32,000 bases of DNA from Nitratidesulfovibrio vulgaris str. Hildenborough (lineage in GTDB: Bacteria > Desulfobacterota > Desulfovibrionia > Desulfovibrionales > Desulfovibrionaceae), in contig NC_002937.3 in NCBI RefSeq assembly GCF_000195755.1, positions 2,790,001 through 2,822,000 of the forward strand, in the 5' to 3' direction. How positions within the stretch are numbered: the stretch's first letter is position 1; each line of letters opens with the position of its first letter. Of the stretch, positions 9,024 through 28,949 are shown piece after piece. Position numbers and translations under genes: made by a program. The notes below the pieces were generated by a model. The model was not told where the DNA came from, did not search any database, and saw only the letters and a program-made list of their open reading frames with translations.

Positions 9024-9474
9024 GAGGTCTCCCTTCCTCCGCAGCCACGTCCTGCACACGGCAGCCAGTCCGCCGGGTACCGATACGGGGGCTCGTGTTA
9101 CGCACGGCACAGATGCCACACTACACGACCAGCATACATGAGTGTTGCCGTGTCGGGCAACACACGACCAACAGACGAAGGGAGTACACACGCTGCCGAT
9201 GGCAGTCGGCCGCATATCTCCGTGCCGATGCCCACGCAGTGCCATGTCATGGGCCCAAGCCTCGCCGCAGTGGTCACTAGGTACGCACACTGGGGAGGCG
9301 TTTAGTTTGGCACAAGGCGTGAGTTCGAGAGCGTCAGGTGTTTTGCCTTGACGCACAAAGGTTTACAATGAAGTCTTGTGCCAAATATCGCGCTACGCAA
9401 AATATGATGCGGATGTGAAAAAATGGAAGAAAAGCGCGCGCGGATTGGCACAGACCAACCCCACTTTAGAACGA

Positions 9475-9510
9475 AAACGGGCGGCCCTGTCGGGTCGCCC
9501 GTTTGTTTTA
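9475..9510 (-). terminator. Bidirectional rho-independent terminator at the prophage left end (ends the repressor transcript)
   Basis: AAACGGGCGGCCC-TGTC-GGGTCGCCCGTTT (13 bp including one G-T pair). T-runs on both sides: TTGTTTT on the plus strand and TTTTCGTT on the minus strand. Confidence 0.75.
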
Positions 9511-9590
9511 TGTAGATGCTTCGTGCAAGCAGCAAAAAAGCTATCTAGAAAAAGGACTGCATTTTGCTGCGCAGGTGTGGCATTTGCGCT

Positions 9591-10373
9591 TCAGTTCAAT
9601 TCTCTGCCAACCCACACCGCACGTCCAATAATGCGTATTCCATTGGAAAGGTCGCCTCGAGCGTCAATTTCCAGAGGTGGATACACGGCGTTATAGCTTG
9701 AAAGCACGATTTTTCCCGGCGCTGCATTCACCATCTTCAGATAGACCACATCCTCAACGCCAACAGCATAAACTTTGCCCGCGCGCGGGTCTCTCTGGCT
9801 CTGGTCGATGAGAACCACGTCGCCGTTCATTATATTGGGTTCCATACTATCGCCATCCACGCGCATCAGCACCATATGCGAAGGCTGCCCCTTGCGTAGC
9901 AAGAAGTCTGTGCGGAAGGCATAGCGACGCTCAATATTAGCCCCAGTCTCAAAGCTGCCATTGCCTGCACTCAAGCGGGCTTCGACCATAGGTAGCATCA
10001 TGATTTCGCAGTCGTCACATTCGATGACGTGCGCCTTTCCGGCATGAGCCAAGGGGGGCGTCATTTCTTCCTGCGCAGACTCAGACTTTGTAACGACACG
10101 AGCTATGGGGTCGCCCGCCCGAAGCATTCCCACGCGGACGGGTTCCATTGCTACAGCTTCAGGCTGTCTTCCAAAGAAGAGCCAATCACTGCTGATTCCT
10201 GTTTTTTCAGCAAAAGACTGTATCCACACCGGGGGAACTTCCCCACGCTTGCGCGCACCGCTAACCGACTGCGGCGTTATGCCCAGTATTCTTGCTAAAT
10301 CAGAATCGTTTTTAGCTCCAGAGGCGACCATCAGTCGTTCTAGAACGGCTTCAAACGATTTCGCTCTTTCCAT
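9591..10373 (-). CDS. Prophage repressor, HTH + peptidase S24 (LexA/CI-like, putatively autocleavable)
   Basis: N-terminal HTH SDLARILGITPQSVSGARKRG. C-terminal S24 signature VDGDSMEPNI (Ser nucleophile) and VVYLKMV (Lys). ATG 10373 with GGAG 6 nt upstream; the raw ORF starts at a TTG at 10394. Confidence 0.88.
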   Translation of the reverse strand: MERAKSFEAVLERLMVASGAKNDSDLARILGITPQSVSGARKRGEVPPVWIQSFAEKTGISSDWLFFGRQPEAVAMEPVRVGMLRAGDPIARVVTKSESAQEEMTPPLAHAGKAHVIECDDCEIMMLPMVEARLSAGNGSFETGANIERRYAFRTDFLLRKGQPSHMVLMRVDGDSMEPNIMNGDVVLIDQSQRDPRAGKVYAVGVEDVVYLKMVNAAPGKIVLSSYNAVYPPLEIDARGDLSNGIRIIGRAVWVGRELN

Positions 10374-10394
10374 GTTGAACTCCGAAATTAACAA

Positions 10395-10559
10395 ACTAGA
10401 AGCGATAAGCTTTTTATTTATACAAATGCAAGACTTACATATTTAGTGCGCATTTTAAACTTAGAAATGAAATTTTTGGTTGAAACAATAAGCCTAAGAC
10501 TGTAGAAGTGGCTTGCGGGCGGTAGAAAAACAACCGTGACAAGTTAACCTTATCTGCCC
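10395..10559. promoter_or_regulatory. Divergent immunity/early promoter-operator region
   Basis: AT-rich 165 bp between the repressor and the rightward early genes. Candidate early promoter TTGAAA (10480-10485)-17 nt-TAGAAG (10503-10508). Four TAGAA-containing repeats: AAACTAGAAG, AAACTTAGAAA, CTGTAGAAG, CGGTAGAAAA. Confidence 0.5.
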
Positions 10560-11090
10560 GTGCACACCCGGTCAACGTCCAGAGCGTTAGAGAGTCTGGA
10601 CGGTGACCTCACAAATGAACGGACGGTAACGGTGAACACGGTGACGCTCTCCCTCTTTGACGACAGCGCGGCACGCCTTGCCGGGCTGAACGCCACCCTG
10701 AAGACAGCCATGCAACGCACTATTGCGGCAAGTGGGCTGTCACGGGAGCAGGTCCTTGACCGCATGAACACGCTAGCGAAACAGGCGGGGGTGAAGCTCA
10801 CCACGGGCAACGCCCACCAGCTTTCGCTGGCGACGCTCGACAAATGGCTGAACCCGGCTGACCGCGAGCACCTGCCTTCCGTTCTGGCTCTCCATGTCTT
10901 CTGCCTTGCCGTGAACAACGTGCAGCCCTTGGCGCAACTGCTGGGGCTGCACGGTTGCGGCGTGATGACAGCCGAAGACAGACGGCTGCGCGACTACGGG
11001 CAGGTCTGCTGGGAATCAAAGCGGCGGCGCAAGGCCGCCCGTCAACTGGAACTGGAGCTTGAACATGGACTTTCGCACGGGCGCAGGTAA
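10560..11090 (+). CDS. Early protein of unknown function, possible DNA-binding (start uncertain)
   Basis: First rightward ORF with GC3-rich coding. The segment SGLSREQVLDRMNTLAKQAG is HTH-like. The GTG at 10560 lacks an SD. An alternative GTG at 10641 has GGTGA 5 nt upstream. Confidence 0.5.
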   Translation: MHTRSTSRALESLDGDLTNERTVTVNTVTLSLFDDSAARLAGLNATLKTAMQRTIAASGLSREQVLDRMNTLAKQAGVKLTTGNAHQLSLATLDKWLNPADREHLPSVLALHVFCLAVNNVQPLAQLLGLHGCGVMTAEDRRLRDYGQVCWESKRRRKAARQLELELEHGLSHGRR

Positions 11091-16806: not shown

Positions 16807-17223
16807 ATGCGTGAAGAATCGCGTGCCTCCCTGCTGGCCAAGCTGCATATAGCCAAGAAAGACCTTGGCCTTACGGACGACATCTACCGCGACATGCTGG
16901 AAGGCGTGACGGGCAAGCGTTCCGGTGCCGACCTGTCGGTGAAGGAACTGGTGGCCGTGATAGCCGAACTGCGGGCCAAAGGGTGGCAACCCAAGAGCAC
17001 CCCGCGCTACGGGCGCAAGCCCAAGGTACGGGGAGCGGCCAAGCCCCAGCTTGCCAAGGTGGAGGCATTGCTTGCCGACAATGGCAGGCCGTGGGCCTAC
17101 GCTGAAGGCATCGCCAAGCGGATGTACGGTGTGGAGAAGCTTGAATGGTGCGACGAGGCGCAGATTTCCGGCGTCATGGTGGCACTGGTGAAGGACGCCC
17201 GCCGCCGCAAGGGGAAGGCATGA
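16807..17223 (+). CDS. GemA / Mu gp16-like regulatory protein (DUF1018 type)
   Basis: LLAKLHIAKKDLGLTDDIYRDMLEGVTGKRSGADLSVKELVAVIAELRAKGW is the characteristic gp16/GemA N-terminal signature. Position upstream of mor, as in Mu-like phages. Confidence 0.8.
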   Translation: MREESRASLLAKLHIAKKDLGLTDDIYRDMLEGVTGKRSGADLSVKELVAVIAELRAKGWQPKSTPRYGRKPKVRGAAKPQLAKVEALLADNGRPWAYAEGIAKRMYGVEKLEWCDEAQISGVMVALVKDARRRKGKA

Positions 17224-17708
17224 GCGCAAGCATGAACCTTCTGCCGGGTATGCCGTCGCGCCCTGCATTGTCCGAAGCCGCCTTGCCTGCGGCAGCCCGC
17301 GAGATAGCGGCGCTGGTGGGGCTACCCAAGACCCTGCAACTGGTGGAACGCCTTGGTGGCACGACGTTCCCCGTGCCCAAACGCGCCACCAAGGTGGGCG
17401 AACTGCGCTACTTCATGCTTGCCGACGTGGTGGGGGTGGAGGCGGCCGACCTGTTGTGCAGACACTACGGCGGAACCAACCTGTACGTGCCCCGTTGTGC
17501 CGAAGCCCTACGCAAGGCGCGTGATGCGGAAATCGTGGCGACCTTCGACCGTGAGACGAAAGAGAAGAGTGCTAGCGCGGTTGTCGCGGAACTCGCCTTG
17601 CGGTATAGGCTGTCCGACAGGCGTATATGGCTGATACTCAAAGAGGTCCCTGTCCTCGCCGTCATGGAACACATCAACCCCGCCCGCAGGCAAGGGCGGC
17701 TGTTGTAG
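17220..17708 (+). CDS. Mor/C-family transcriptional activator (middle/late gene activator)
   Basis: 162 aa. C-terminal HTH AELALRYRLSDRRIWLILKE and core LLCRHYGGTNLYVP are typical of the Mor family. The ATGA start overlaps the GemA stop. Confidence 0.8.
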   Translation: MSASMNLLPGMPSRPALSEAALPAAAREIAALVGLPKTLQLVERLGGTTFPVPKRATKVGELRYFMLADVVGVEAADLLCRHYGGTNLYVPRCAEALRKARDAEIVATFDRETKEKSASAVVAELALRYRLSDRRIWLILKEVPVLAVMEHINPARRQGRLL

Positions 17709-17720
17709 AGGAGTAGCGAA

Positions 17721-18059
17721 GTGGTACGTTTATTTGCCCTTGTACTTCTATTGGTTACAATGCCCACGCTTGCTTTTGCAGATGATGCAGAGAGAGTAGA
17801 AAAACACAAAATCGGTGCCATGAAGGGTGACTACCAAGACCAACGCAACCTTGCTTATACTCTTTCAACGTCCAGTGACCCCTTCGTCGAGAACAAGATG
17901 CTCGGCTGCGCTTGGCGCAAGTTGATACTTCTTTCGGGAAGTCAACGAATCGATGCTACTGACATACAGAACGAAAAGTTCTATTGCGGCAAGCTCTCCC
18001 CTGAAGAACAGGCTGTCGCAACAAAGCAGGCAGAGCGCCTCTATAAAGAAATATACTAG
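17721..18059 (+). CDS. Secreted small protein (112 aa), lower-GC moron after mor
   Basis: GTG start with AGAGGAG 7 nt upstream. Signal peptide VRLFALVLLLVTMPTLAFA|DD. Two Cys residues. About 43% GC in its first 60 nt by hand count, against a GC-rich backbone. Confidence 0.7.
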   Translation: MVRLFALVLLLVTMPTLAFADDAERVEKHKIGAMKGDYQDQRNLAYTLSTSSDPFVENKMLGCAWRKLILLSGSQRIDATDIQNEKFYCGKLSPEEQAVATKQAERLYKEIY

Positions 18060-18082
18060 CCACTGAACCCCTTCAACCTGTC
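18060..18082 (+). repeat. Conserved 23-nt box, copy A (CCACTGAACCCCTTCAACCTGTC)
   Basis: 21/23 identical to 26806-26828, including a 15-nt exact run. It lies upstream of the lysis cassette, the Plys position in Mu. Confidence 0.85.
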
Positions 18083-18083
18083 A

Positions 18084-18130
18084 CCGCCCCCGGTCGCTGT
18101 CATTCTGACAGCGCCGGGGGCGGCCCCTTT
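18084..18130 (+). terminator. Strong rho-independent terminator after the mor-moron unit
   Basis: CCGCCCCCGG(T)CGCTGTCA-TTC-TGACAGCGCCGGGGGCGG (18 bp with a 1-nt bulge) followed by CCCCTTTT. Confidence 0.8.
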
Positions 18131-20847: not shown

Positions 20848-22520
20848 AGATAGCCCCCAAGCTCACCCGGCGCGAGTTCCTGCTTTCGCTGGCCGAGCTT
20901 TCCGCCACCTTGCGCCAGCAGATAGAGGCCGAATGCGAAGGCTTCGCGGCAGACCCGGAAGCCAGTGCCAAACGTCGCGCACAAGCACAGGACGACTTCA
21001 CCTACTTCAGGCGCACCTACTTCCCGCATTATGTGCGGGCTACGGCCACGACAGGCGGCGGCGATTCGGTCTTGCACCGCTGGCTGGACGCCGAACTGCC
21101 CAGCATGGTGGCAAGCCCTGCCGGGGTGAAGCTGGCGGTGGCCGCCCCGCGTGGCGAGGCCAAGTCCACCTATGTGGCGCTGTTCTTCGTGCTGTGGTGC
21201 GTGGCCACGGGCCGCAAGCACTACATATTGCTGATTGCCGACGCCCTGACACAGGCCGCCGCGCTGCTTGAGGCAGTGAAGGCCGAACTTGAGGCCAACC
21301 CGCGCCTTGGCATGGACTTTCCCGAGGCCACGGGCCGGGGTCGCATCTGGAACGAGGTCACCACGGTGACGGCGGGCAACATCAAGTTGCAGGCCCTTGG
21401 CGCGGGCAAGCGTATGCGCGGCCTGCGGCACGGCCCGCACCGCCCCGACCTGTGCATCCTCGACGACCTTGAGAACGACGAGAACGTGCAGAAGCCCGAA
21501 CAGCGCGACAAGCTTGAAGCATGGCTGCAACGCACCGTGCTGTCGCTTGGCCCGGCCGACGACAGCATGGACGTGGTGTATGTGGGCACCATCCTGCATT
21601 ACGACAGCGTGCTGGCCCGCACCCTGAAGAAACCCCTGTGGCGCTCAAGGGCGTTCCGGGCCGTGCTGGCGTGGCCGCACCGCATGGACCTGTGGGACAG
21701 GTGGGAGGCCATCCTCCACGGCGAAGGGGCAGAGGCGGCGCGGGCCTTCCACACGGCCCATGCCGACGACATGGCCCAAGGGGCAGAGGTCTCATGGCCC
21801 GCCATGCGCCCCCTGTACAAGCTGATGGAGAAGCGCGCCGAAGACCACGCCGCCTTCGACGCCGAACAGCAGAACGACCCCCTTTCCGGCGACGACGCCC
21901 CCTTTGCCACCTGCATCACCTTCTGGGTGGACCGCCGAGCCGACTGGCTGTTCTTCGGCGCAGTGGACCCTTCATTGGGCAAGCACGGCGCAGGGCGCGA
22001 CCCTTCCGCCATCCTTGTGGGCGGTTTCCACCGGGCCACCATGACGCTGGACGTGGTGGAGGCCCTCATCCGCAAGCGGCACCCCGACCGCATCATTGAA
22101 GACGTCATCGCCGCCCATGCCGAATACCGCTGCCTGATGTGGGGCGTGGAGGCCGTGCAGTTTCAAGAGTTCTTCGCGCACGTGCTGGCCCAGCGCGCCC
22201 TTGAACGGGGCATGGCCATGCCGGTGCGTCCCGTGGTGAACGGCACCGACAAGCAGCTGCGCATCGAGACCTTGCAACCCTACATGGTGCAGGGCCGCAT
22301 ACGCCTGCACCCCTCACAGGCCACGCTGGTTGACCAGTTGCGCCATTTCCCCAAGGCCGACCACGACGACGGGCCGGACGCGCTAGAGATGCTGTGGCGC
22401 ATGGCTACGGGCGGCTTCGTCAGCCTGCGCGACGCCTTCATCCCCGTACCGCGCACCCATTCCTTCAGGGCCACGGCCCCCGACGCATTCGACGAGGAGG
22501 CAGACCATGTATTCTATTGA
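20844..22520 (+). CDS. Terminase large subunit (Mu gp28-like)
   Basis: 558 aa. Walker A-like PRGEAKS, Walker B-like LCILDDLEND, and a C-terminal nuclease region with HDDGPDALEM. Position matches Mu gp28. Confidence 0.88.
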   Translation: MKIAPKLTRREFLLSLAELSATLRQQIEAECEGFAADPEASAKRRAQAQDDFTYFRRTYFPHYVRATATTGGGDSVLHRWLDAELPSMVASPAGVKLAVAAPRGEAKSTYVALFFVLWCVATGRKHYILLIADALTQAAALLEAVKAELEANPRLGMDFPEATGRGRIWNEVTTVTAGNIKLQALGAGKRMRGLRHGPHRPDLCILDDLENDENVQKPEQRDKLEAWLQRTVLSLGPADDSMDVVYVGTILHYDSVLARTLKKPLWRSRAFRAVLAWPHRMDLWDRWEAILHGEGAEAARAFHTAHADDMAQGAEVSWPAMRPLYKLMEKRAEDHAAFDAEQQNDPLSGDDAPFATCITFWVDRRADWLFFGAVDPSLGKHGAGRDPSAILVGGFHRATMTLDVVEALIRKRHPDRIIEDVIAAHAEYRCLMWGVEAVQFQEFFAHVLAQRALERGMAMPVRPVVNGTDKQLRIETLQPYMVQGRIRLHPSQATLVDQLRHFPKADHDDGPDALEMLWRMATGGFVSLRDAFIPVPRTHSFRATAPDAFDEEADHVFY

Positions 22521-24225
22521 CGACATGCTGCGCACGGCGCGCGGCTTCGTCCATTCGTTTCTGGCTTCGGGCGGGGTGCAGACCCGAGACGGCGACAGGG
22601 CCGAGGCCACGGCCAACCTGTACTGGGAGCGTTGGGGCAACGCCGTGGACGGCCTCACCCCCGCGCGGCTGCGCAGCATCCTGCAAGCGGCGGACGACGG
22701 CGACATCCTGCGCCAGCACCTGCTCTTCGCCGACATGGAGGACAGGTGCGACCATCTGGCGGCGGAACTGTCGAAGCGCAAACGGGCCTTGCTGACCCTC
22801 GACTGGGAGATACTGCCGGGCCGCGCCGCAGACGCCAAGGCACAGCGCGTGGCCGATGCCGTGCGCGAACAGTTCGACGCGCTGGCCAACATCGAAGACC
22901 TCATGCTGGACATGGCCGACGGCATAGGCCACGGCTTCGCCGCCTTGGAGATACAGTGGGGGCGCGAAGGACGCACCCACCTGCCGCAGGCGTTCCACTT
23001 CAGGCCACAGGCATGGTTCCAGACCGCGCCAGAAGACCGCAACGCCCTGCGCCTGCGCGACGGCACGGCCGAAGGGGCCACCCTGCAACCCTTCGGCTGG
23101 GTGCTGCACACCCACCGCAGCCGTTCGGGCTGGCTGCCCCGCGCCGGGCTGTTCCGCGTGCTGGCATGGTCGTACCTCATCCGGGCCTACGCCCTTGCCG
23201 CCAACGCCTCCTATGTGGAGGTGCACGGTCTGCCGTTCCGCCTTGGCAAATACCCGCAGGGCAGCAACGAAGAAGACAAGGCGGCCCTGCGGCGCGCCTT
23301 GCAGTGCCTTGGCCGCGATGCTTCGGGCATCATCCCGCAGGGGATGGACATCATCTTCCAGACGCCCGCCAACAGCACGCACGACCACTTCGGCACGCTC
23401 ATTGCCCGGTGCGAACAGGGCATGAGCAAGGCCATCTTGGGCGGCACGCTGACCAGTCAGGCCGACGGCAAGACCAGCACCAACGCCCTTGGCAACATCC
23501 ATAACGAGATGCGGCACGACCTGCTGGTGTCGGACGCCTTGCAGATTGCGGGCACGCTGTCCCGGCAGGTGCTGGCCCCGCTGGCCATCCTGAACGAGGG
23601 CGTGGCCGATGCCCGGTTTCTGCCGTGGTTCCGCTTCGACACGCGCGAGGCCGAAGACCTTTCGACCTACGCCGATGCGTTGCCCAAGCTGGCGGGTGTG
23701 ATGCGCATCCCCGCCCGCTGGGCGCATGAGAAGCTGAAGATACCGCAACCCGAAGGGGATGAAGAGGTGCTGCGCGTGCCCGATGCCCTTGGCGGGCCGC
23801 GTGACGCGAACGCGGGGCCGGGGCCTAAAGGTGGCGCACCTACAGGCCAAGGTGAGGGTGCGGGCGAAGACGCGGCGCTCACGGCGGCCCTTGCGGCGGT
23901 CTCTGCCCCAACGACTGACCATGACGCTGGCCCTGAATCTGGCCCTGACGCTGGCCATGACGCTGCCCCTGAACCGGATGCAGACTTTCCCGACCAGCAG
24001 GCCGTGGACGCCATCGACCTGCCCGACGCGACCTTGCAGGCCGCCATGGAAGAACTGCTGGCCCCGCTCATGGCAGAACTCCAGCAAGGCACGGAACCGG
24101 GTGAACTGCTGGCGCGACTCGGGGAACTGTACCCCACGATGCCGGGCCGCAATCTGGAAGAACTGCTGGCGCGGGCGCTGTTCGTCAGCGAGGTGTGGGG
24201 GCGCGTGAGCGCCGCAGGTGAATAG
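22507..24225 (+). CDS. Portal protein (Mu gp29-like, DUF935)
   Basis: 572 aa. Its position after the terminase and the conserved-looking N-terminal and central regions (DGDILRQHLLFADMEDRCDHL...) are typical of the Mu gp29 family. GGAGGAGG SD. Confidence 0.85.
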   Translation: MYSIDDMLRTARGFVHSFLASGGVQTRDGDRAEATANLYWERWGNAVDGLTPARLRSILQAADDGDILRQHLLFADMEDRCDHLAAELSKRKRALLTLDWEILPGRAADAKAQRVADAVREQFDALANIEDLMLDMADGIGHGFAALEIQWGREGRTHLPQAFHFRPQAWFQTAPEDRNALRLRDGTAEGATLQPFGWVLHTHRSRSGWLPRAGLFRVLAWSYLIRAYALAANASYVEVHGLPFRLGKYPQGSNEEDKAALRRALQCLGRDASGIIPQGMDIIFQTPANSTHDHFGTLIARCEQGMSKAILGGTLTSQADGKTSTNALGNIHNEMRHDLLVSDALQIAGTLSRQVLAPLAILNEGVADARFLPWFRFDTREAEDLSTYADALPKLAGVMRIPARWAHEKLKIPQPEGDEEVLRVPDALGGPRDANAGPGPKGGAPTGQGEGAGEDAALTAALAAVSAPTTDHDAGPESGPDAGHDAAPEPDADFPDQQAVDAIDLPDATLQAAMEELLAPLMAELQQGTEPGELLARLGELYPTMPGRNLEELLARALFVSEVWGRVSAAGE

Positions 24226-24227
24226 CC

Positions 24228-25478
24228 ATGCCCGAAGTCCCCTCACTCACCTACGCCATAGCGCTACCGCCCAAGGATGCCATCGCCTACTTCGAGGCCA
24301 AGGGCTACGCCGTCACCTTCAACTGGCACGACCTGTGGCAAGAGGCGCACGCCCGCGCCTTCACCGTGGCAGGCGTCGCCCGGCTGGACGTGCTGGAGGA
24401 CATCCGCGAAGCCCTCACCACCCACCTGAAGGAGGGCAAGGGCGAATACCGGTTCCACAAGCAACTGGAACCGACGCTGCGTAGCAAGGGCTGGTGGGGC
24501 AAACGCACAGAGACGGGGGCCGACGGCAAGCCCCGCGTGGTGCGCATGGGCAGCCCGGCCCGGTTGCGGCTCATCTTCCGTCAGAACATCCAGACGGCGT
24601 ACATGGCGGGCCGCTACAGGCAGATGCACGAGAACGCCGAAGCCCGCCCCTTCTGGCAGTATGTGGCCGTGCTGGATTCCAAGACGCGCCCCGGCCACAA
24701 GATGTTGCACGGGCGCGTGTTCCGCCATGACGACCCGTTCTGGCATTCGCACTATCCGCCCAACGGCTGGGGCTGCCGCTGCCGGGTGCGTGCCCTGTCG
24801 CCGCACCGCATGGAGAAGGAAGGCCTCACCACCGAAAGCGGCGCACGGCACATGGTGACGCAGCAGCGCGAGGTGCTGAACCGCCATACCGGAGAGGTGC
24901 AGACGCGCCCCGTCACCGGCTACCGGATGCCGGGCGCGGACGGTGCCATTGCATGGACGGACCTTGGCTTCTCATACAACCCCGGTGCGGCCGGGCTGGC
25001 CAACATGCTTGGCGAGGGCATCCGCAAGCTTGAGGGCGCAACGCATCCGGTGGCCGCCGCCACGGTGCGCAGACTGGCCAGCGGTGAGACGTTCACGGCG
25101 TGGCAGGCCAAGCCCGAAGGCGACTTCCCCTTGGCGGTGCTGCGGGGTGAAGACGCGGCGCGCATCGGCGCAACGTCCACGGTGGCCCGGCTGTCACCAG
25201 AGACCTACGCCAAACAGTGCCGCCACCACCCCGAACTGACACAGGCCGACTACGCACGCGCTCAAGACGTGGTGGAACAGGGCGAACGGCTACAGGATGG
25301 CACAAAGAACCTGCTGTTTCTGCTGGATGAACCGGGCGGGCATGTCGTGGTGGTGAAGGCCACCCAAGAAGCCGATGAACTGTTCGTGACCAGTATGCGC
25401 CGCTTGAGCCAAGGCGAAGCCCGCCGCAACAGCGAGGTCAGGCGGTTGAGAAAAAAGCAGCCCGGCTCGGACAGATAG
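24228..25478 (+). CDS. Head morphogenesis protein (Mu F / SPP1 gp7 family)
   Basis: 416 aa. The core WQYVAVLDSKTRPGHKMLHGRVFRHDDPFWHSHYPPNGWGCRCRV is the gp7/Mu F signature. Confidence 0.88.
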   Translation: MPEVPSLTYAIALPPKDAIAYFEAKGYAVTFNWHDLWQEAHARAFTVAGVARLDVLEDIREALTTHLKEGKGEYRFHKQLEPTLRSKGWWGKRTETGADGKPRVVRMGSPARLRLIFRQNIQTAYMAGRYRQMHENAEARPFWQYVAVLDSKTRPGHKMLHGRVFRHDDPFWHSHYPPNGWGCRCRVRALSPHRMEKEGLTTESGARHMVTQQREVLNRHTGEVQTRPVTGYRMPGADGAIAWTDLGFSYNPGAAGLANMLGEGIRKLEGATHPVAAATVRRLASGETFTAWQAKPEGDFPLAVLRGEDAARIGATSTVARLSPETYAKQCRHHPELTQADYARAQDVVEQGERLQDGTKNLLFLLDEPGGHVVVVKATQEADELFVTSMRRLSQGEARRNSEVRRLRKKQPGSDR

Positions 25479-25490: not shown

Positions 25491-25642
25491 AGATAGCAGA
25501 GAGACACAACACATACGCAGGGCGGTGGAGGGGCCTGCCACCCGCCGAAGCGGAAACCCCACAATGCGCTCCGGGCTATGCCCGTGCTACGGCCGGCAGA
25601 ATGTCACCGTGTCGCACCATCCCTGCAATGAGGAGACTAGCC

Positions 25643-26131
25643 ATGATAGAGATAGAGGTCAACACAGAGGCCATCGAAGAGGGGCTGCAACGTCTGGCCG
25701 CGTTGGGCCGCGACCTCACCCCCGTGGCCCGTGCCCTTGGCGGGGTCATGGCCGATGCCGCCGAACGCGCCTTCGCCGGGCAGTGCGACCCGGTCACAGG
25801 CGCGGCGTGGCATCCGCTCTCGCCGGTCACACTGGCCCGCCGTGCCAAGGGCGGGCACGACGGCCCCATCCTACAGGTGCGGGGCATCCTCGCTTCCAGC
25901 ATCCACACCGACTACGGGCGCGACCATGTGACCGTGGGCACCAACGAACCACATGCCCGTACCCACCAGTTCGGGGCCATGCGGGGCGCGCATGGCCGCA
26001 CACGCCGCGGCGGCCCCATCCCGTGGGGCAATATCCCAGCGCGGCCCTTCCTCGGCGTGGGGCCGGATGATGAAGAGGAGATTGAGGGCATTGTCAGGGC
26101 GGAAGTGCAAAAGGCGTTTTTTGGCGTGTAA
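25643..26131 (+). CDS. Virion morphogenesis protein (Mu G-like)
   Basis: 162 aa from ATG 25643 (GAGGAG 8 nt upstream). HARTHQFGAMRG...IPARPFLG is the gpG-family motif. Position after F. Confidence 0.8.
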   Translation: MIEIEVNTEAIEEGLQRLAALGRDLTPVARALGGVMADAAERAFAGQCDPVTGAAWHPLSPVTLARRAKGGHDGPILQVRGILASSIHTDYGRDHVTVGTNEPHARTHQFGAMRGAHGRTRRGGPIPWGNIPARPFLGVGPDDEEEIEGIVRAEVQKAFFGV

Positions 26132-26265
26132 GCCTCGGAAAGGCGGTTACCTGATGCGTGATTGGGGAAAGCTCCTTGCGTGAAAACTAACGCTGCGCTA
26201 ACGGGAATAAAACGGCTTCCTGATATTATGGCTTGCCGTAGAAATCTCCCGAGGAAGGTGAACAG

Positions 26266-26802
26266 ATGTCAGCGAAAGTCGTTCAAGAAAATCTTGGTGA
26301 TGCAGTTATTTCTGCTATAGTCCAATTTGCCAGAAAGGATATTAAGACTGTTGCTCAAATCGAGGACGTTCTTGATCATATATCTAATGCAAATAAGAGA
26401 TATGTAATTGCATTAGCAATTTATGGAGCTCGCTGGATATACAAACTTCAGCTGGTTACCTTGACTTCAAACGAAGAACAAATAGCCCATGTCAGGGCAC
26501 AAATATCAGAATACGGCTCTTCATGTGAAGCTATTCTTTTAAATATGGCATGTGATGATGGCTTTAAGTATTCAGGAATCCCAAAGTTTTACCATGTCAT
26601 TAGATATTGCAAATCCAAAAGAATAATAAATGCTAGTTTATCTAATAAGCTTCACACTCTGCGCATGTGGAGAAATGAAATCCACATGGAAATTCGGACT
26701 TCTCCAAAATATCTCGACTATTCAAAGCAAGCATATAGTATTTTGCAAGAGGTAATAATCCAGACAAGACGCTGGAAATCTGTGCCAATCAAAACCCTTT
26801 AG
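26266..26802 (+). CDS. AT-rich orphan protein (178 aa) inserted between G and I; function unknown
   Basis: GGAAGGTG SD 5 nt upstream of the ATG. About 38% GC in the first 60 nt by hand count, against GC-rich flanks. Helix-rich looking, with no TM or signal peptide. Contains LHTLRMWRNEIHME, a possible HEPN-like R-x-H element. Confidence 0.75.
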   Translation: MSAKVVQENLGDAVISAIVQFARKDIKTVAQIEDVLDHISNANKRYVIALAIYGARWIYKLQLVTLTSNEEQIAHVRAQISEYGSSCEAILLNMACDDGFKYSGIPKFYHVIRYCKSKRIINASLSNKLHTLRMWRNEIHMEIRTSPKYLDYSKQAYSILQEVIIQTRRWKSVPIKTL

Positions 26803-26805
26803 TAC

Positions 26806-26828
26806 CCACTGAACCCCTTCCATCTGTC
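26806..26828 (+). repeat. Conserved 23-nt box, copy B (CCACTGAACCCCTTCCATCTGTC)
   Basis: 21/23 identical to 18060-18082. It lies upstream of the protease/scaffold gene, the PI position in Mu. Confidence 0.85.
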
Positions 26829-26837
26829 TTCCCTCTC

Positions 26838-26860
26838 ATGCCCCCGTATACCGGGGGCAT
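26838..26860 (+). other. GC hairpin overlapping the start codon of gene I
   Basis: ATGCCCCCG-TATAC-CGGGGGCAT (9-bp stem). The right arm contains the GGGGG SD-like run and the AT of ATG 26859. No T-tract follows. Confidence 0.6.
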
Positions 26861-28019
26861 GTCGCATTTCAAGCCCTCGCGCACAGCGCATCATCCCACC
26901 GCCGCACTGACCGTGCCGGTCTGCCTTTCGCAAGAAGGGGCTGCCGGTCTGCCCGCCGGGCTGAACGTGCAACTCTTCCCCGAAGGCACGTTCGCCGCCC
27001 GTGATGGACGCCCCGCCACCATGACAGGTGGCGCCCTCGCCGCATGGCGCATGGACGCGGACATCGCCGCCGCCATCATCGCGGCGGTGGCCTCCCGCGA
27101 GACGCCGCTCGTCATCGACTATGAGCACCAGTCGCTGAACGCTCGTCAGAACGGCCAGCCCGCCCCGGCGGCCGGATGGGTCGAATCCGTGGCCTTCGTG
27201 CCCGGTCGCGGCCTGTTCGCCGCCGTGTCGTGGACGGAACGCGCCCGCGCCTACATCGAAGCGGGCGAATACCGCTTCATCTCCCCCGTCTTCACCTTCG
27301 ACGCCACCACCGGCGCGGTGCAGGCCCTTGCCAGCGCCGCCCTCACCAACACCCCGGCCCTCGACGGCATGGAGGCCGTCGCGGCTGTGGAAGACCCCAC
27401 AACACAGGAGACCGCAATGGACGAATTGCTGGAGCGCCTGCGCTGGATGCTGAACCTGCCCGTGACAGCCACGGCGGGCGAGGTCATCGCGCAACTGGAC
27501 AAACTGAAGGGGATGCTGGCCCCCGGTGCGGAGGGCGAAGCCGCCGCCACGGCCGACCCCGTGGACCTTGTGGCGCTGCTCACGGAACAGCGCGAGCAGA
27601 TAGCCACGCTGACCACGCAGACCACCACGCCCGACCCGGCACGCTTCGCGCCCGTGGCCGCACTCACCGCCCTGCAACAGAGCAACACGGCCTTGCAGGC
27701 CCGCGTGGCGGAACTGGAGGCCGGGCACGAACTGGCAGCCCTCACGGCGGAGATCGACGCCGCACTGGCCGACGGCCGCCTGAACAAGGCCGTGGAACCG
27801 TGGGCGCGCGAACTGGCCAAGACCGATGCCGCAGCCCTGCGCACCTACCTTGCCGCCGCCGTACCCGTGGCCGCGCTCACCCACATGCAGACCGGGGGCG
27901 TCACCCCGGCGGGGGCGCAGCCCGGCACGGCCGCCCTCACTGAAGAAGCCCGCTACGTCATCAACCAGTTGGGAATCACCCCCGAAGAATACCGCGCCGC
28001 CAACGGCGAGGAGGCATAG
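26859..28019 (+). CDS. Head protease / scaffold (Mu I-like)
   Basis: VQLFPEGTFAARDGRP...PLVIDYEHQSL...YRFISPVF is the Mu-like prophage I protease signature. The C-terminal half is Ala/Leu/Glu-rich and coiled (scaffold). Start is ATG 26859 or 26838. Confidence 0.85.
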   Translation: MSHFKPSRTAHHPTAALTVPVCLSQEGAAGLPAGLNVQLFPEGTFAARDGRPATMTGGALAAWRMDADIAAAIIAAVASRETPLVIDYEHQSLNARQNGQPAPAAGWVESVAFVPGRGLFAAVSWTERARAYIEAGEYRFISPVFTFDATTGAVQALASAALTNTPALDGMEAVAAVEDPTTQETAMDELLERLRWMLNLPVTATAGEVIAQLDKLKGMLAPGAEGEAAATADPVDLVALLTEQREQIATLTTQTTTPDPARFAPVAALTALQQSNTALQARVAELEAGHELAALTAEIDAALADGRLNKAVEPWARELAKTDAAALRTYLAAAVPVAALTHMQTGGVTPAGAQPGTAALTEEARYVINQLGITPEEYRAANGEEA

Positions 28020-28949
28020 ATGGCCATCGTCACCAACGCATTGCTCGCCACCATGCGCACCGGCTTCAACGCCGCGTTCCAGCGCGGCCAGAACCGCGCC
28101 GCGCCCATGTGGCCCACCGTGGCCACGCTGATACCCAGCACCGCCGCACAGAACACCTACGGCTGGCTTGGGCAGTTCCCCAAACTGCGCGAATGGGTGG
28201 GCGACCGTATGTTCCGCCACATGCAGGAACACGGCTATGCCATCACCAACAAGCTGTACGAGAGCACCGTGGGCGTGGCCCGTACCGCCATCGAGGACGA
28301 CTCCCTCGGCGTCTACACCCCGCTGTTCGAGGAGATGGGCTACGGCGCGTCCACCCACCCCGACGAACTGGTGTGGGGCCTGCTGAAGAACGGGCACGCC
28401 ACCAACTGCTTCGACGGCCAGTCCTTCTTCGACACCGACCACCCCGTGTACCCCGAAGTGGACGGCACCGGCAGCCCCGCCACGGTGAGCAACAACCTTG
28501 TGCCCTCCACCGACGCCGGAACCGCGTGGTTCCTGCTGGATGTCTCGCGCCCCCTGAAGCCCATCATCTTTCAGGAGCGCACCAAGCCGCAGTTGCAGGT
28601 CATCACCAACCCCGACAGCGAGCATGTCTTCATCAAGGACGAAATCCCCTACGGCGTGCGCTACCGCTGCAACGTGGGCTTCGGCTTCTGGCAGATGGCG
28701 GTGCGCAGCCAGCACGCGCTGGACGCCGCAGGCTTCGAGGCCGCGCTGCTGAAGCTTCAGACCATGAAGGCCGACGGCGGCCGCCCGCTGGGCCTCGGCA
28801 CCGGCGGCAAGGCGGGCCTGCTGCTGGTGGTGCCGCCCACGCTGAACGGCGCGGCCCGGCGCGTGGTGGGCGTCTCTGAACTGCCGGGCGGCGGCACCAA
28901 CCCGTGGTACGACGCGGCCACCGTGGTGGCCTCACCGTGGCTGGCCTAG
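28020..28949 (+). CDS. Major head subunit (Mu T-like)
   Basis: 309 aa. MAIVTNALLATMRTGFNAAFQ...YGWLGQFPKLREWVGDR is the characteristic gpT N-terminus. It immediately follows I. Confidence 0.88.
   Translation: MAIVTNALLATMRTGFNAAFQRGQNRAAPMWPTVATLIPSTAAQNTYGWLGQFPKLREWVGDRMFRHMQEHGYAITNKLYESTVGVARTAIEDDSLGVYTPLFEEMGYGASTHPDELVWGLLKNGHATNCFDGQSFFDTDHPVYPEVDGTGSPATVSNNLVPSTDAGTAWFLLDVSRPLKPIIFQERTKPQLQVITNPDSEHVFIKDEIPYGVRYRCNVGFGFWQMAVRSQHALDAAGFEAALLKLQTMKADGGRPLGLGTGGKAGLLLVVPPTLNGAARRVVGVSELPGGGTNPWYDAATVVASPWLA

Follow-up and report, generated by a model that had tools for sequence, protein, structure and literature searches.

A divergent family of predicted HEPN-fold proteins, encoded in an exchangeable slot of a Nitratidesulfovibrio vulgaris Mu-like prophage and in integron cassettes and defence islands: candidate single-gene abortive-infection ribonucleases

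The Mu-like prophage of Nitratidesulfovibrio vulgaris str. Hildenborough raises a simple question: what is the role of a strongly AT-shifted gene that lies between G and I, two head genes that have no gene between them in phage Mu? We address it for a stretch of 32,000 nucleotides (nt) of this genome (NC_002937.3, positions 2,790,001 to 2,822,000), which is called the window here and to which all coordinates refer unless another locus is named. The gene, named X in the following, codes for a protein of 178 amino acids (aa). Judged from structure models, we assign it with high confidence to a new, divergent HEPN-fold family. As to function, slightly better than even chances are given to a stand-alone, trigger-activated HEPN ribonuclease (RNase) that would cause abortive infection or superinfection exclusion; it would most probably be a metal-independent endoribonuclease. 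The features on which the argument is built are the following.

26266–26802, + strand: gene X, coding for the predicted 178-aa HEPN-fold protein of N. vulgaris (WP_010940676.1, 'hypothetical protein'; member of phrog_35412).
26527–26529, + strand: codon of E88, an invariant acidic residue in the long helix 69–97 (core helix 2), from the 89-sequence alignment and the model.
26671–26685, + strand: codons 136 to 140 (R136-N137-E138-I139-H140), which spell the candidate catalytic motif RNxxH; in the model this motif spans the end of helix 123–138 and the first part of the loop before the last helix.
25601–26131, + strand: homologue of Mu G (virion morphogenesis / Neck1), the left flanking backbone gene (PF05069 Phage_tail_S, 2.1e-42; phrog_26); gene callers place its start at 25643, and it is 162 aa long in public assemblies.
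26859–28019, + strand: homologue of the Mu I protease/scaffold, the right flanking backbone gene (PF10123 Mu-like_Pro, 1.5e-105), with an alternative in-frame ATG at 26838.

The late genes of the prophage stand in Mu order in the window, portal, F, G, I and T, all with strong Pfam matches. Between G and I lies the deepest trough in G+C content (GC) of the whole 32 kb, with values of 0.345–0.40 over 26200–26800 compared with 0.65–0.75 on both flanks, and X is the single sizeable open reading frame (ORF) in this interval. An earlier note on this DNA had described an AT-rich 178-aa gene between Mu G and I; the ORF, the GC trough and the Pfam matches of the flanks confirm this. In many public assemblies of this prophage the ORF escaped the gene callers: 151 indexed blocks list the G protein and 72 list X, with identical DNA. 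We ascribe this to the atypical composition of X, which hides it from annotation. An empty-slot or disrupted variant of the prophage was not found, and contigs with the identical G protein in which the gene in the gap had not been called hold the identical 706 bp. L038 (3490–4195) and L039 (1364–2069) are equivalent to window 26132–26837 and identical in their DNA.

Is X an orphan, as the earlier note had assumed? It is not. A word-indexed search found five relatives at 31–36% identity, and an exhaustive HMMER search with an alignment of these first relatives returned 226 clusters at the 50% identity level (E<=1e-3), of which 50 reach E<=1e-30, so that the family has at least this size. In a profile search of an annotated collection 130 clusters at 90% identity were found, none of which has a Pfam domain or a name. 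The hosts comprise Pseudomonadota, Bacteroidota, Acidobacteriota, Deinococcota, Cyanobacteria, Planctomycetota and Firmicutes-type metagenome-assembled genomes. Most members are 200–215 aa long; X of the window, P0037 and L040 represent a short form without about 30 residues between helices 4 and 5. X matches a PHROG of unknown function, phrog_35412, from end to end. Neither the 50,697 GenBank phage records nor the 2.9 million IMG/VR contigs nor PLSDB contained a relative, and no literature on WP_010940676 was found. Compared with PADLOC-DB v2, X of the window matched 0 families at E<=10, and 89 relatives showed only scattered weak matches to type II restriction endonuclease and Cas13a models. 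The only recurrent Pfam match is DUF4145 (PF13643, HEPN clan), which stays below threshold in 6 of the 89 members (best E 0.004) and is not reached by X of the window itself. By these sequence comparisons the family is new and unannotated in every library queried. A separate observation concerns P0107 (580 aa), a distant member with a C-terminal fusion to a long pentapeptide-repeat region, the sole multidomain architecture seen; this region could be a sensor or decoy module.

The assignment to HEPN comes from the predicted structure. AlphaFold models of X reached a pLDDT (predicted local distance difference test score) of 83.7 with 6 sequences and of 94.0 with 89 sequences, the latter with a predicted template-modelling (TM) score of 0.88. 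The model is all-alpha, with helices at residues 2–24, 29–35, 42–65, 69–97, 108–117, 123–138 and 150–172. In Foldseek searches of the PDB, all ranks from 1 to 21 for the first model and from 1 to 28 for the second are HEPN domains, at a probability of about 1.0 and target-normalised TM-scores of 0.5–0.67. They include HepT toxins (7bxo, 6m6w, 5yep, 7ae6/8/9), YutE, AF0298, TM0613, 1wwp and the HEPN domain of sacsin, with Csm6 and MtlR at lower ranks. A viral fold library gave nothing useful for the model, and a sequence-profile search of the PDB with the X family gave no match.

Conservation falls on the residues which one would look for in a HEPN nuclease. Across 89 aligned sequences, some of them only 15–20% identical to the query, Q79, E88 and N137 are invariant and R56, Y83, R136 and H140 are conserved to at least 90%; RNxxH is present in essentially every family member that covers the region. 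According to the model, helix 123–138 closes with R136-N137, H140 lies in the next loop, and 150–172 is the last helix. E88 in helix 69–97 probably corresponds to the conserved acidic residue of HEPN helix 2 (PMC3710099), the typical Ex3[KR] form being absent. HEPN RNases are characterised by a polar N, D or H after the arginine, the acidic residue in helix 2 near the motif, an R–H spacing of 4–6, and a motif that spans the junction between core helix 3 and the loop leading into helix 4 (PMC3710099). As modelled, X has the four-helix core, the polar N137 after the arginine and the motif position, but not Rx4-6H. The HEPN likeness that the earlier note had sensed holds for the fold, with almost only HEPN domains among the Foldseek matches, and for the placement of R-N-x2-H and probably of E88, whereas the strict spacing is not kept. 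Of the two motif readings it had offered, RN..H is family-wide as R136-N137-x2-H140, whereas R133-x6-H140 is confined to the close subfamily, R133 being replaced by Y in distant members. From which residues are conserved we infer that X is probably catalytically active.

The same data bear on a different reading, in which X is a HEPN-like helical protein without catalytic activity and its conserved residues serve binding; it could then be an adaptor for a ligand or nucleotide, a regulator or a decoy. The Rx3H spacing is non-canonical, MtlR is among the Foldseek matches, and many HEPN families are non-catalytic, for instance the nucleotidyltransferase-fused ones and MtlR (PMC3710099). However, non-catalytic HEPN families have lost the R/H motif (PMC3710099), whereas here, even at 15–20% identity, it is R, N, H and E on which conservation is strongest. 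We therefore consider a merely binding protein improbable.

For a catalytic HEPN protein, the closest structural counterparts are the HepT/DUF86 toxins (5yep, 6m6w, 7bxo, 7ae6-9). They share with X the four-helix core, over 131–150 aligned columns and nearly the full target, and an arginine, a polar residue and a histidine at the end of helix 3, followed by about 35–40 residues with one last helix. In the HepT protein of 7ae8 these are R102/H107 in about 141–152 aa, according to the PDB titles. In contrast to HepT, X has an additional N-terminal extension of about 40 residues and two helices and an inserted helix, 108–117; its motif is RNxxH (x3) instead of Rx4HxY, sequence similarity is not detectable, and the nucleotidyltransferase (MNT) partner is absent from all X loci. 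An MNT–HEPN (HepT–MntA) pair was therefore rejected for X: annotated neighbours include no nucleotidyltransferase, and there is no second gene in the slot of the window.

DUF4145 proteins, and RAZR in particular, resemble X as divergent HEPN proteins with a non-canonical R–H spacing. RAZR is a validated single-gene abortive-infection RNase of the DUF4145 type, a single protein activated by a trigger, and since it uses R146/H154, spacings outside 4–6 are possible in active enzymes. DUF4145 is often found alone or fused in restriction-modification and defence contexts (PMC3710099). X differs from RAZR by the lack of a zinc-finger sensor domain and by a spacing of 3 instead of 7. In concept, the proposed role equals that of the lactococcal HEPN Abi proteins (AbiD/F, AbiJ, AbiU2, AbiV), which stand alone, cause abortive infection and are located on mobile elements (PMC3710099); however, no PADLOC or Pfam model of these families matches X or the 89 relatives.

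Where, then, are the relatives of X located? With the exception of two Mu-like prophages, all sampled relatives are found in bacterial chromosomes, integron cassettes or defence islands, and none of 44 metagenome loci contains Mu head genes. In 19 of 19 loci the GC of X is below that of its surroundings; in Marinicauda, for instance, it is 0.36 against 0.69 for the locus, and X stands alone there between an AcrB pump and the threonyl-tRNA synthetase gene. A conserved neighbour of X does not exist in these 19 loci. In a background-controlled test, 5 of 15 genome loci (L011, L017, L019, L020 and L023) had an attC-like hairpin 2–10 nt past the X stop codon (8–10 nt in four of them), compared with such a hairpin in 11 of 880 random windows. 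In L017 and L019 attC-like sites (R'' GTCTAAC ... R' GTTAGAC) recur in arrays and enclose every small ORF, X included; in L011 cassettes of this type follow an IntI-type integrase gene, and in some further loci a GTTAGAR core closely precedes the X start codon. The cassettes are spaced by 716–829 bp, which leaves room for X only. The X family is mobile as a single gene. As cassette-like units with attC sites these relatives are comparable to defence-encoding integron cassettes (BRiCs), and integron cassettes and prophage hotspots are both established reservoirs of defence genes. The copy in the window differs from them: it has neither attC nor an R' core, so that an integron cassette was rejected here, and L002, the other Mu-like locus with X, lacks attC as well.

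Several relatives have defence-type neighbours. In L033, HmaC (1136 bits) and an MkoA-like (Mokosh-like) helicase lie beside X. In L025 (9908–11807) a DISARM-type DrmC phospholipase D nuclease is located upstream of the X homologue, and an RmrA-like M78-peptidase/helix-turn-helix (HTH) gene of the RosmerTA antitoxin type overlaps the X stop codon; X may be the toxin partner in this locus. DUF4238-Pers stands beside X in L022, and AriA/OLD/GajA-like ATPases do so in L012 and L023. A Swt1-HEPN cassette lies near X in L019; its comparison with the X family profile by hhalign was not significant (probability 0.4%), the sole aligned segment pairing the RN motifs of both. The earlier note had pointed to defence islands and to the G/I slot as places where homologues might recur; they do recur in the former, and in the latter only in L002.

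A selfish toxin is another explanation that these neighbourhoods call to mind: X could be a HepT-like addiction module that stabilises the prophage or an integron array, with a small antitoxin, protein or RNA, that has escaped recognition, or with variable partners. HepT toxins are the best structural matches, the antitoxin-type gene of L025 overlaps X, a second small ORF follows X in L002, and toxin–antitoxin modules are common in chromosomal integrons. However, the 19 loci have no common neighbour and none has an MNT partner, the cassettes fit X only, and in the window just 3 nt separate the X stop codon from the conserved box described below, with no Rfam RNA detected. An addiction role is unlikely on this evidence.

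The position of X in the prophage becomes understandable from a comparison with related phages. The elements concerned are these.

26205–26805, + strand: exchangeable AT-rich cargo module, consisting of leader and X gene; homology among five phages ends after 26203 and resumes at 26806, with GC of 0.35–0.40 against 0.65–0.72.
26176–26203, + strand: conserved left border of the slot, TTGC ... CTAACG (26187–26192)-N5-CTAACG (26198–26203), in columns invariant among five related phages with different cargo.
26806–26829, + strand: conserved right border, box CCACTGAACCCCTTCC (26806–26821)-nn-CTGTCT, invariant in five phages.
L086, 2352–3943: cargo pair of 220 and 317 aa; the 317-aa protein recurs on plasmids beside a second gene.
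L087, 2695–3954: cargo of 419 aa with GHKL-like motifs and weak similarity to a plasmid 'ATP-binding protein'.
L088, 3068–3943: cargo of 291 aa, the N-terminus of which matches regions annotated as TIR-domain.

The G–I interval is about 200 bp long and empty in Mu and VW-6B. Among 55 Mu-like loci from IMG/VR the median gap is 185 bp, and it exceeds 400 bp in 12. In the three closest relatives of the window phage (L086, L087 and L088; G and I about 70% identical) the gaps amount to 1082–1719 bp, have a GC of 0.39–0.44 and contain unrelated genes, for which the names given (GHKL-type 'ATP-binding protein', TIR-like N-terminus) are weak leads only. The order G-X-I-T occurs in one other locus, L002, with X 35%, I 56% and T 54% identical. 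Together, the five related phages carry five different sets of AT-rich cargo between the same conserved borders, in line with the horizontally acquired cargo module of which the earlier note had spoken. The G/I slot is a site of freely swapped cargo. The insert is AT-rich as that note had stated, but its extent had been taken too wide at about 670 bp: the swapped module covers approximately 26205–26805, and the first 70 nt or so after G are conserved backbone. Diverse AT-rich accessory genes that are swapped between conserved phage genes are likewise found in the defence hotspots of P2/P4-type prophages. A description of the Mu-type G/I junction as a defence hotspot was not found in the literature.

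The left border is a twin direct repeat, CTAACG-N4/5-(G)CTAACG, with a spacing of about 11 nt, located about 55–70 nt past the G stop codon in the window, L002, L086, L087 and L088 and unique within the window. Possibly it is a regulator site, a promoter element or a recombination border; CTAAC resembles the R'' core of attC, yet without an attC structure. The box of the right border begins 3 nt past the X stop codon, and from there homology continues through a hairpin into I. It has three matches in the window at <=3 mismatches, compared with 0.32 expected. The second copy, at 18060, directly follows the GemA gene, a Mor/C-family activator gene (17145–17708) and a small AT-shifted orphan, and directly precedes holin/SLT genes. 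By position we take the copies at 18060 and 26806 to correspond to the late promoters P_lys and P_I of Mu, respectively. For this reason we read the box as a probable late-promoter element that would serve the I (head) operon as P_I does in Mu. X hence stands at an operon boundary: the late unit from lys to G ends before it, and the putative promoter of the I (head) operon comes after it.

These comparisons also decide on the explanation that X is a gene for head assembly or structure conserved in Mu-like phages. That X lies among head genes and in their orientation would suit this. However, X is absent from Mu, VW-6B and all 55 IMG/VR loci, including the three closest relatives, its relatives reside outside phages and its composition is aberrant. 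A structural role is effectively refuted by this distribution.

A further explanation is an anti-defence enzyme on the side of the phage, with a role like that of the acr genes in this slot. X would then be a HEPN-type nuclease that destroys an immune RNA or signal of the host (for instance CRISPR RNA, retron RNA, toxIN-type RNA or cyclic oligoadenylate) at infection or induction. In the Pseudomonas phage JBD88a, AcrF3 and two small genes occupy the interval between the G homologue and the protease, which agrees with what the earlier note had said of acr genes at this junction in Mu-like Pseudomonas phages. The slot and the orientation in these acr–aca loci (Casadabanvirus) are identical to those of X, and the cargo is variable. 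In the Ralstonia phage RS138 the interval contains an 'integron gene cassette protein'. Furthermore, X is co-oriented with the late genes and no terminator follows G, so that late co-transcription is possible, and some HEPN domains degrade cyclic oligoadenylates. On the other hand, X is larger than the acr genes, has a conserved motif of the enzyme type and lacks an aca-type HTH gene, its relatives are absent from phage records and IMG/VR and mainly located in chromosomes, cassettes and defence islands, and what the slot contains in other phages are large proteins of enzyme-like character (220–419 aa), one with a TIR-like domain. A canonical acr–aca locus was rejected since the slot has no HTH gene and the relatives are common in chromosomes yet missing from phage collections. 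An anti-defence enzyme in the wider sense has little probability. Of the two roles which the earlier note had proposed, this distribution and the missing aca-type gene speak for the HEPN-like exclusion effector.

How could such an effector work? R136, N137 and H140, at the end of core helix 3 and in the following loop, would form the active site with E88 of core helix 2, and as in other HEPN RNases the site would probably be completed across a homodimer. X would be made in the lysogen, from a weak promoter of its own and/or by read-through, and would remain inactive until an incoming phage supplies the trigger. Activated X would cleave cellular and/or phage RNA and thereby arrest translation. 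The infection would abort, with superinfection exclusion and a benefit to the lysogen population, hence to the prophage, as the outcome. Two elements upstream of X are of interest for its expression.

26253–26260, + strand: Shine-Dalgarno sequence GGAAGGTG, 5 nt before the ATG of X; a CCGAGGArG block is common to L002.
26221–26229, + strand: TGaTATTAT, a weakly evidenced candidate for an extended -10 element of X, read from the sequence (TATTAT 26224–26229, TG-n 26221–26223).

These two, the box and the hairpin all lie where the earlier note had placed them. A consensus scan of 25800–27100 found no terminator.

Several observations weigh against an abortive-infection RNase. On the structural side, the Foldseek E-values are only 0.02–0.3 and helical bundles can match by chance; R136, H140 and E88 were placed by the helix boundaries of the model, not by superposition on the catalytic residues of HepT; and the R–H spacing of 3 (Rx3H) is outside the canonical Rx4-6H of HEPN. 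X of the window has no significant match in Pfam, NCBIfam, PADLOC or the PDB sequences, and no curated threshold was reached. A free-standing RNase without antitoxin needs auto-inhibition, for which no mechanism was identified in X. As to expression, the consensus scan found no sigma-70 -35/-10 promoter on the + strand of 25800–27100, and the -10-like element is not kept in all relatives: TATTAT is present also in L087, but absent from L002, L086 and L088. In Mu-like phages of Pseudomonas, moreover, the slot is occupied by an anti-defence gene. Finally, the neighbours of X are housekeeping genes in L014, L016 and L018, and guilt by association is only suggestive. With these points taken into account, the trigger-activated RNase is the function to which we incline. 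The evidence is strong for fold and context, while this function is a prediction.

A few further features of the region complete the picture.

22507–24225: portal gene (Pfam match).
24228–25478: F gene (Pfam match).
28020–28949: T gene (gpT; Pfam match).
26837–26861, + strand: hairpin with 10 bp and rich in G+C pairs (-20.6 kcal/mol, z = -3.05), the 3' arm of which holds the conserved start codon of I (ATG 26859).

The hairpin is kept in L002 with a compensated stem, and no structured RNA of the interval gave an Rfam match above noise. Each of its arms contains an in-frame ATG of I, at 26838 (used in public calls) and at 26859 in the 3' arm, and only the latter is conserved in L002 and L086–L088. 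This arrangement suggests that the hairpin controls translation initiation of I.

The leader of X, 26221–26262 (TATTATGGCTTGCCGT ... CCCGAGGA), is similar to L087 at 2680–2725 (TATTATGAGGCTTACCGTCCCGAGAA), where the unrelated 419-aa cargo gene begins. This resemblance suggests that the left recombination breakpoint varies among phages and that the body of a former gene gave way to X. In L002 a second AT-rich ORF follows X in the slot (1124–1438, 104 aa, with a hydrophobic segment, a lysine-rich tail and no Pfam match), which is absent from the window.

Elsewhere in the window, 17721–18110 shows a second cargo-like arrangement. An AT-shifted ORF (GC about 0.46–0.50) of 112 aa, with a signal-peptide-like N-terminus and no Pfam match, is located between the Mor/C-family activator and the holin/SLT lysis genes and ends at 18059, one base before the box copy CCACTGAACCCCTTC and a GC hairpin. 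A lowered GC (about 0.51–0.53 compared with about 0.65) is also seen at 9200–10800, upstream of the Mu-like early/late genes.

HEPN RNases in defence, moron hotspots in prophages and defence cassettes in integrons are already known. New are the X family itself, its contracted RNxxH motif, its dual life as integron cassette and as cargo of the Mu slot, and the way in which the G/I hotspot of this phage clade is built, with its defined architecture. The family is invisible to annotation by Pfam, NCBIfam, PADLOC and DefenseFinder-type tools, and its gene is missed in about half of the assemblies of the window prophage. A more far-reaching view, which we put forward tentatively and hold to be somewhat short of an even chance, is that of a widespread, unrecognised single-gene anti-phage family: a partner-less HEPN RNase with a contracted R-N-x2-H that moves among integron cassettes, chromosomal defence islands and an undescribed defence hotspot of Mu-like prophages, a plug-in site between the lys–G and I operons where the twin CTAACG and the late-promoter box would supply expression signals to any cargo. 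If this is true, a compact RNase effector of about 180–210 aa without partner would join the anti-phage systems, and the HEPN motif would tolerate an R–H spacing of 3, which would call for wider motif-based searches. In a Desulfovibrio-type clade, the G/I junction of Mu-like phages would then be a hotspot for cargo in general, framed by defined borders, and further defence or anti-defence candidates could be harvested from Mu-like prophages in a simple way. That integron cassettes and prophage hotspots serve as alternative vehicles of one and the same gene bears on how defence genes spread among bacteria.

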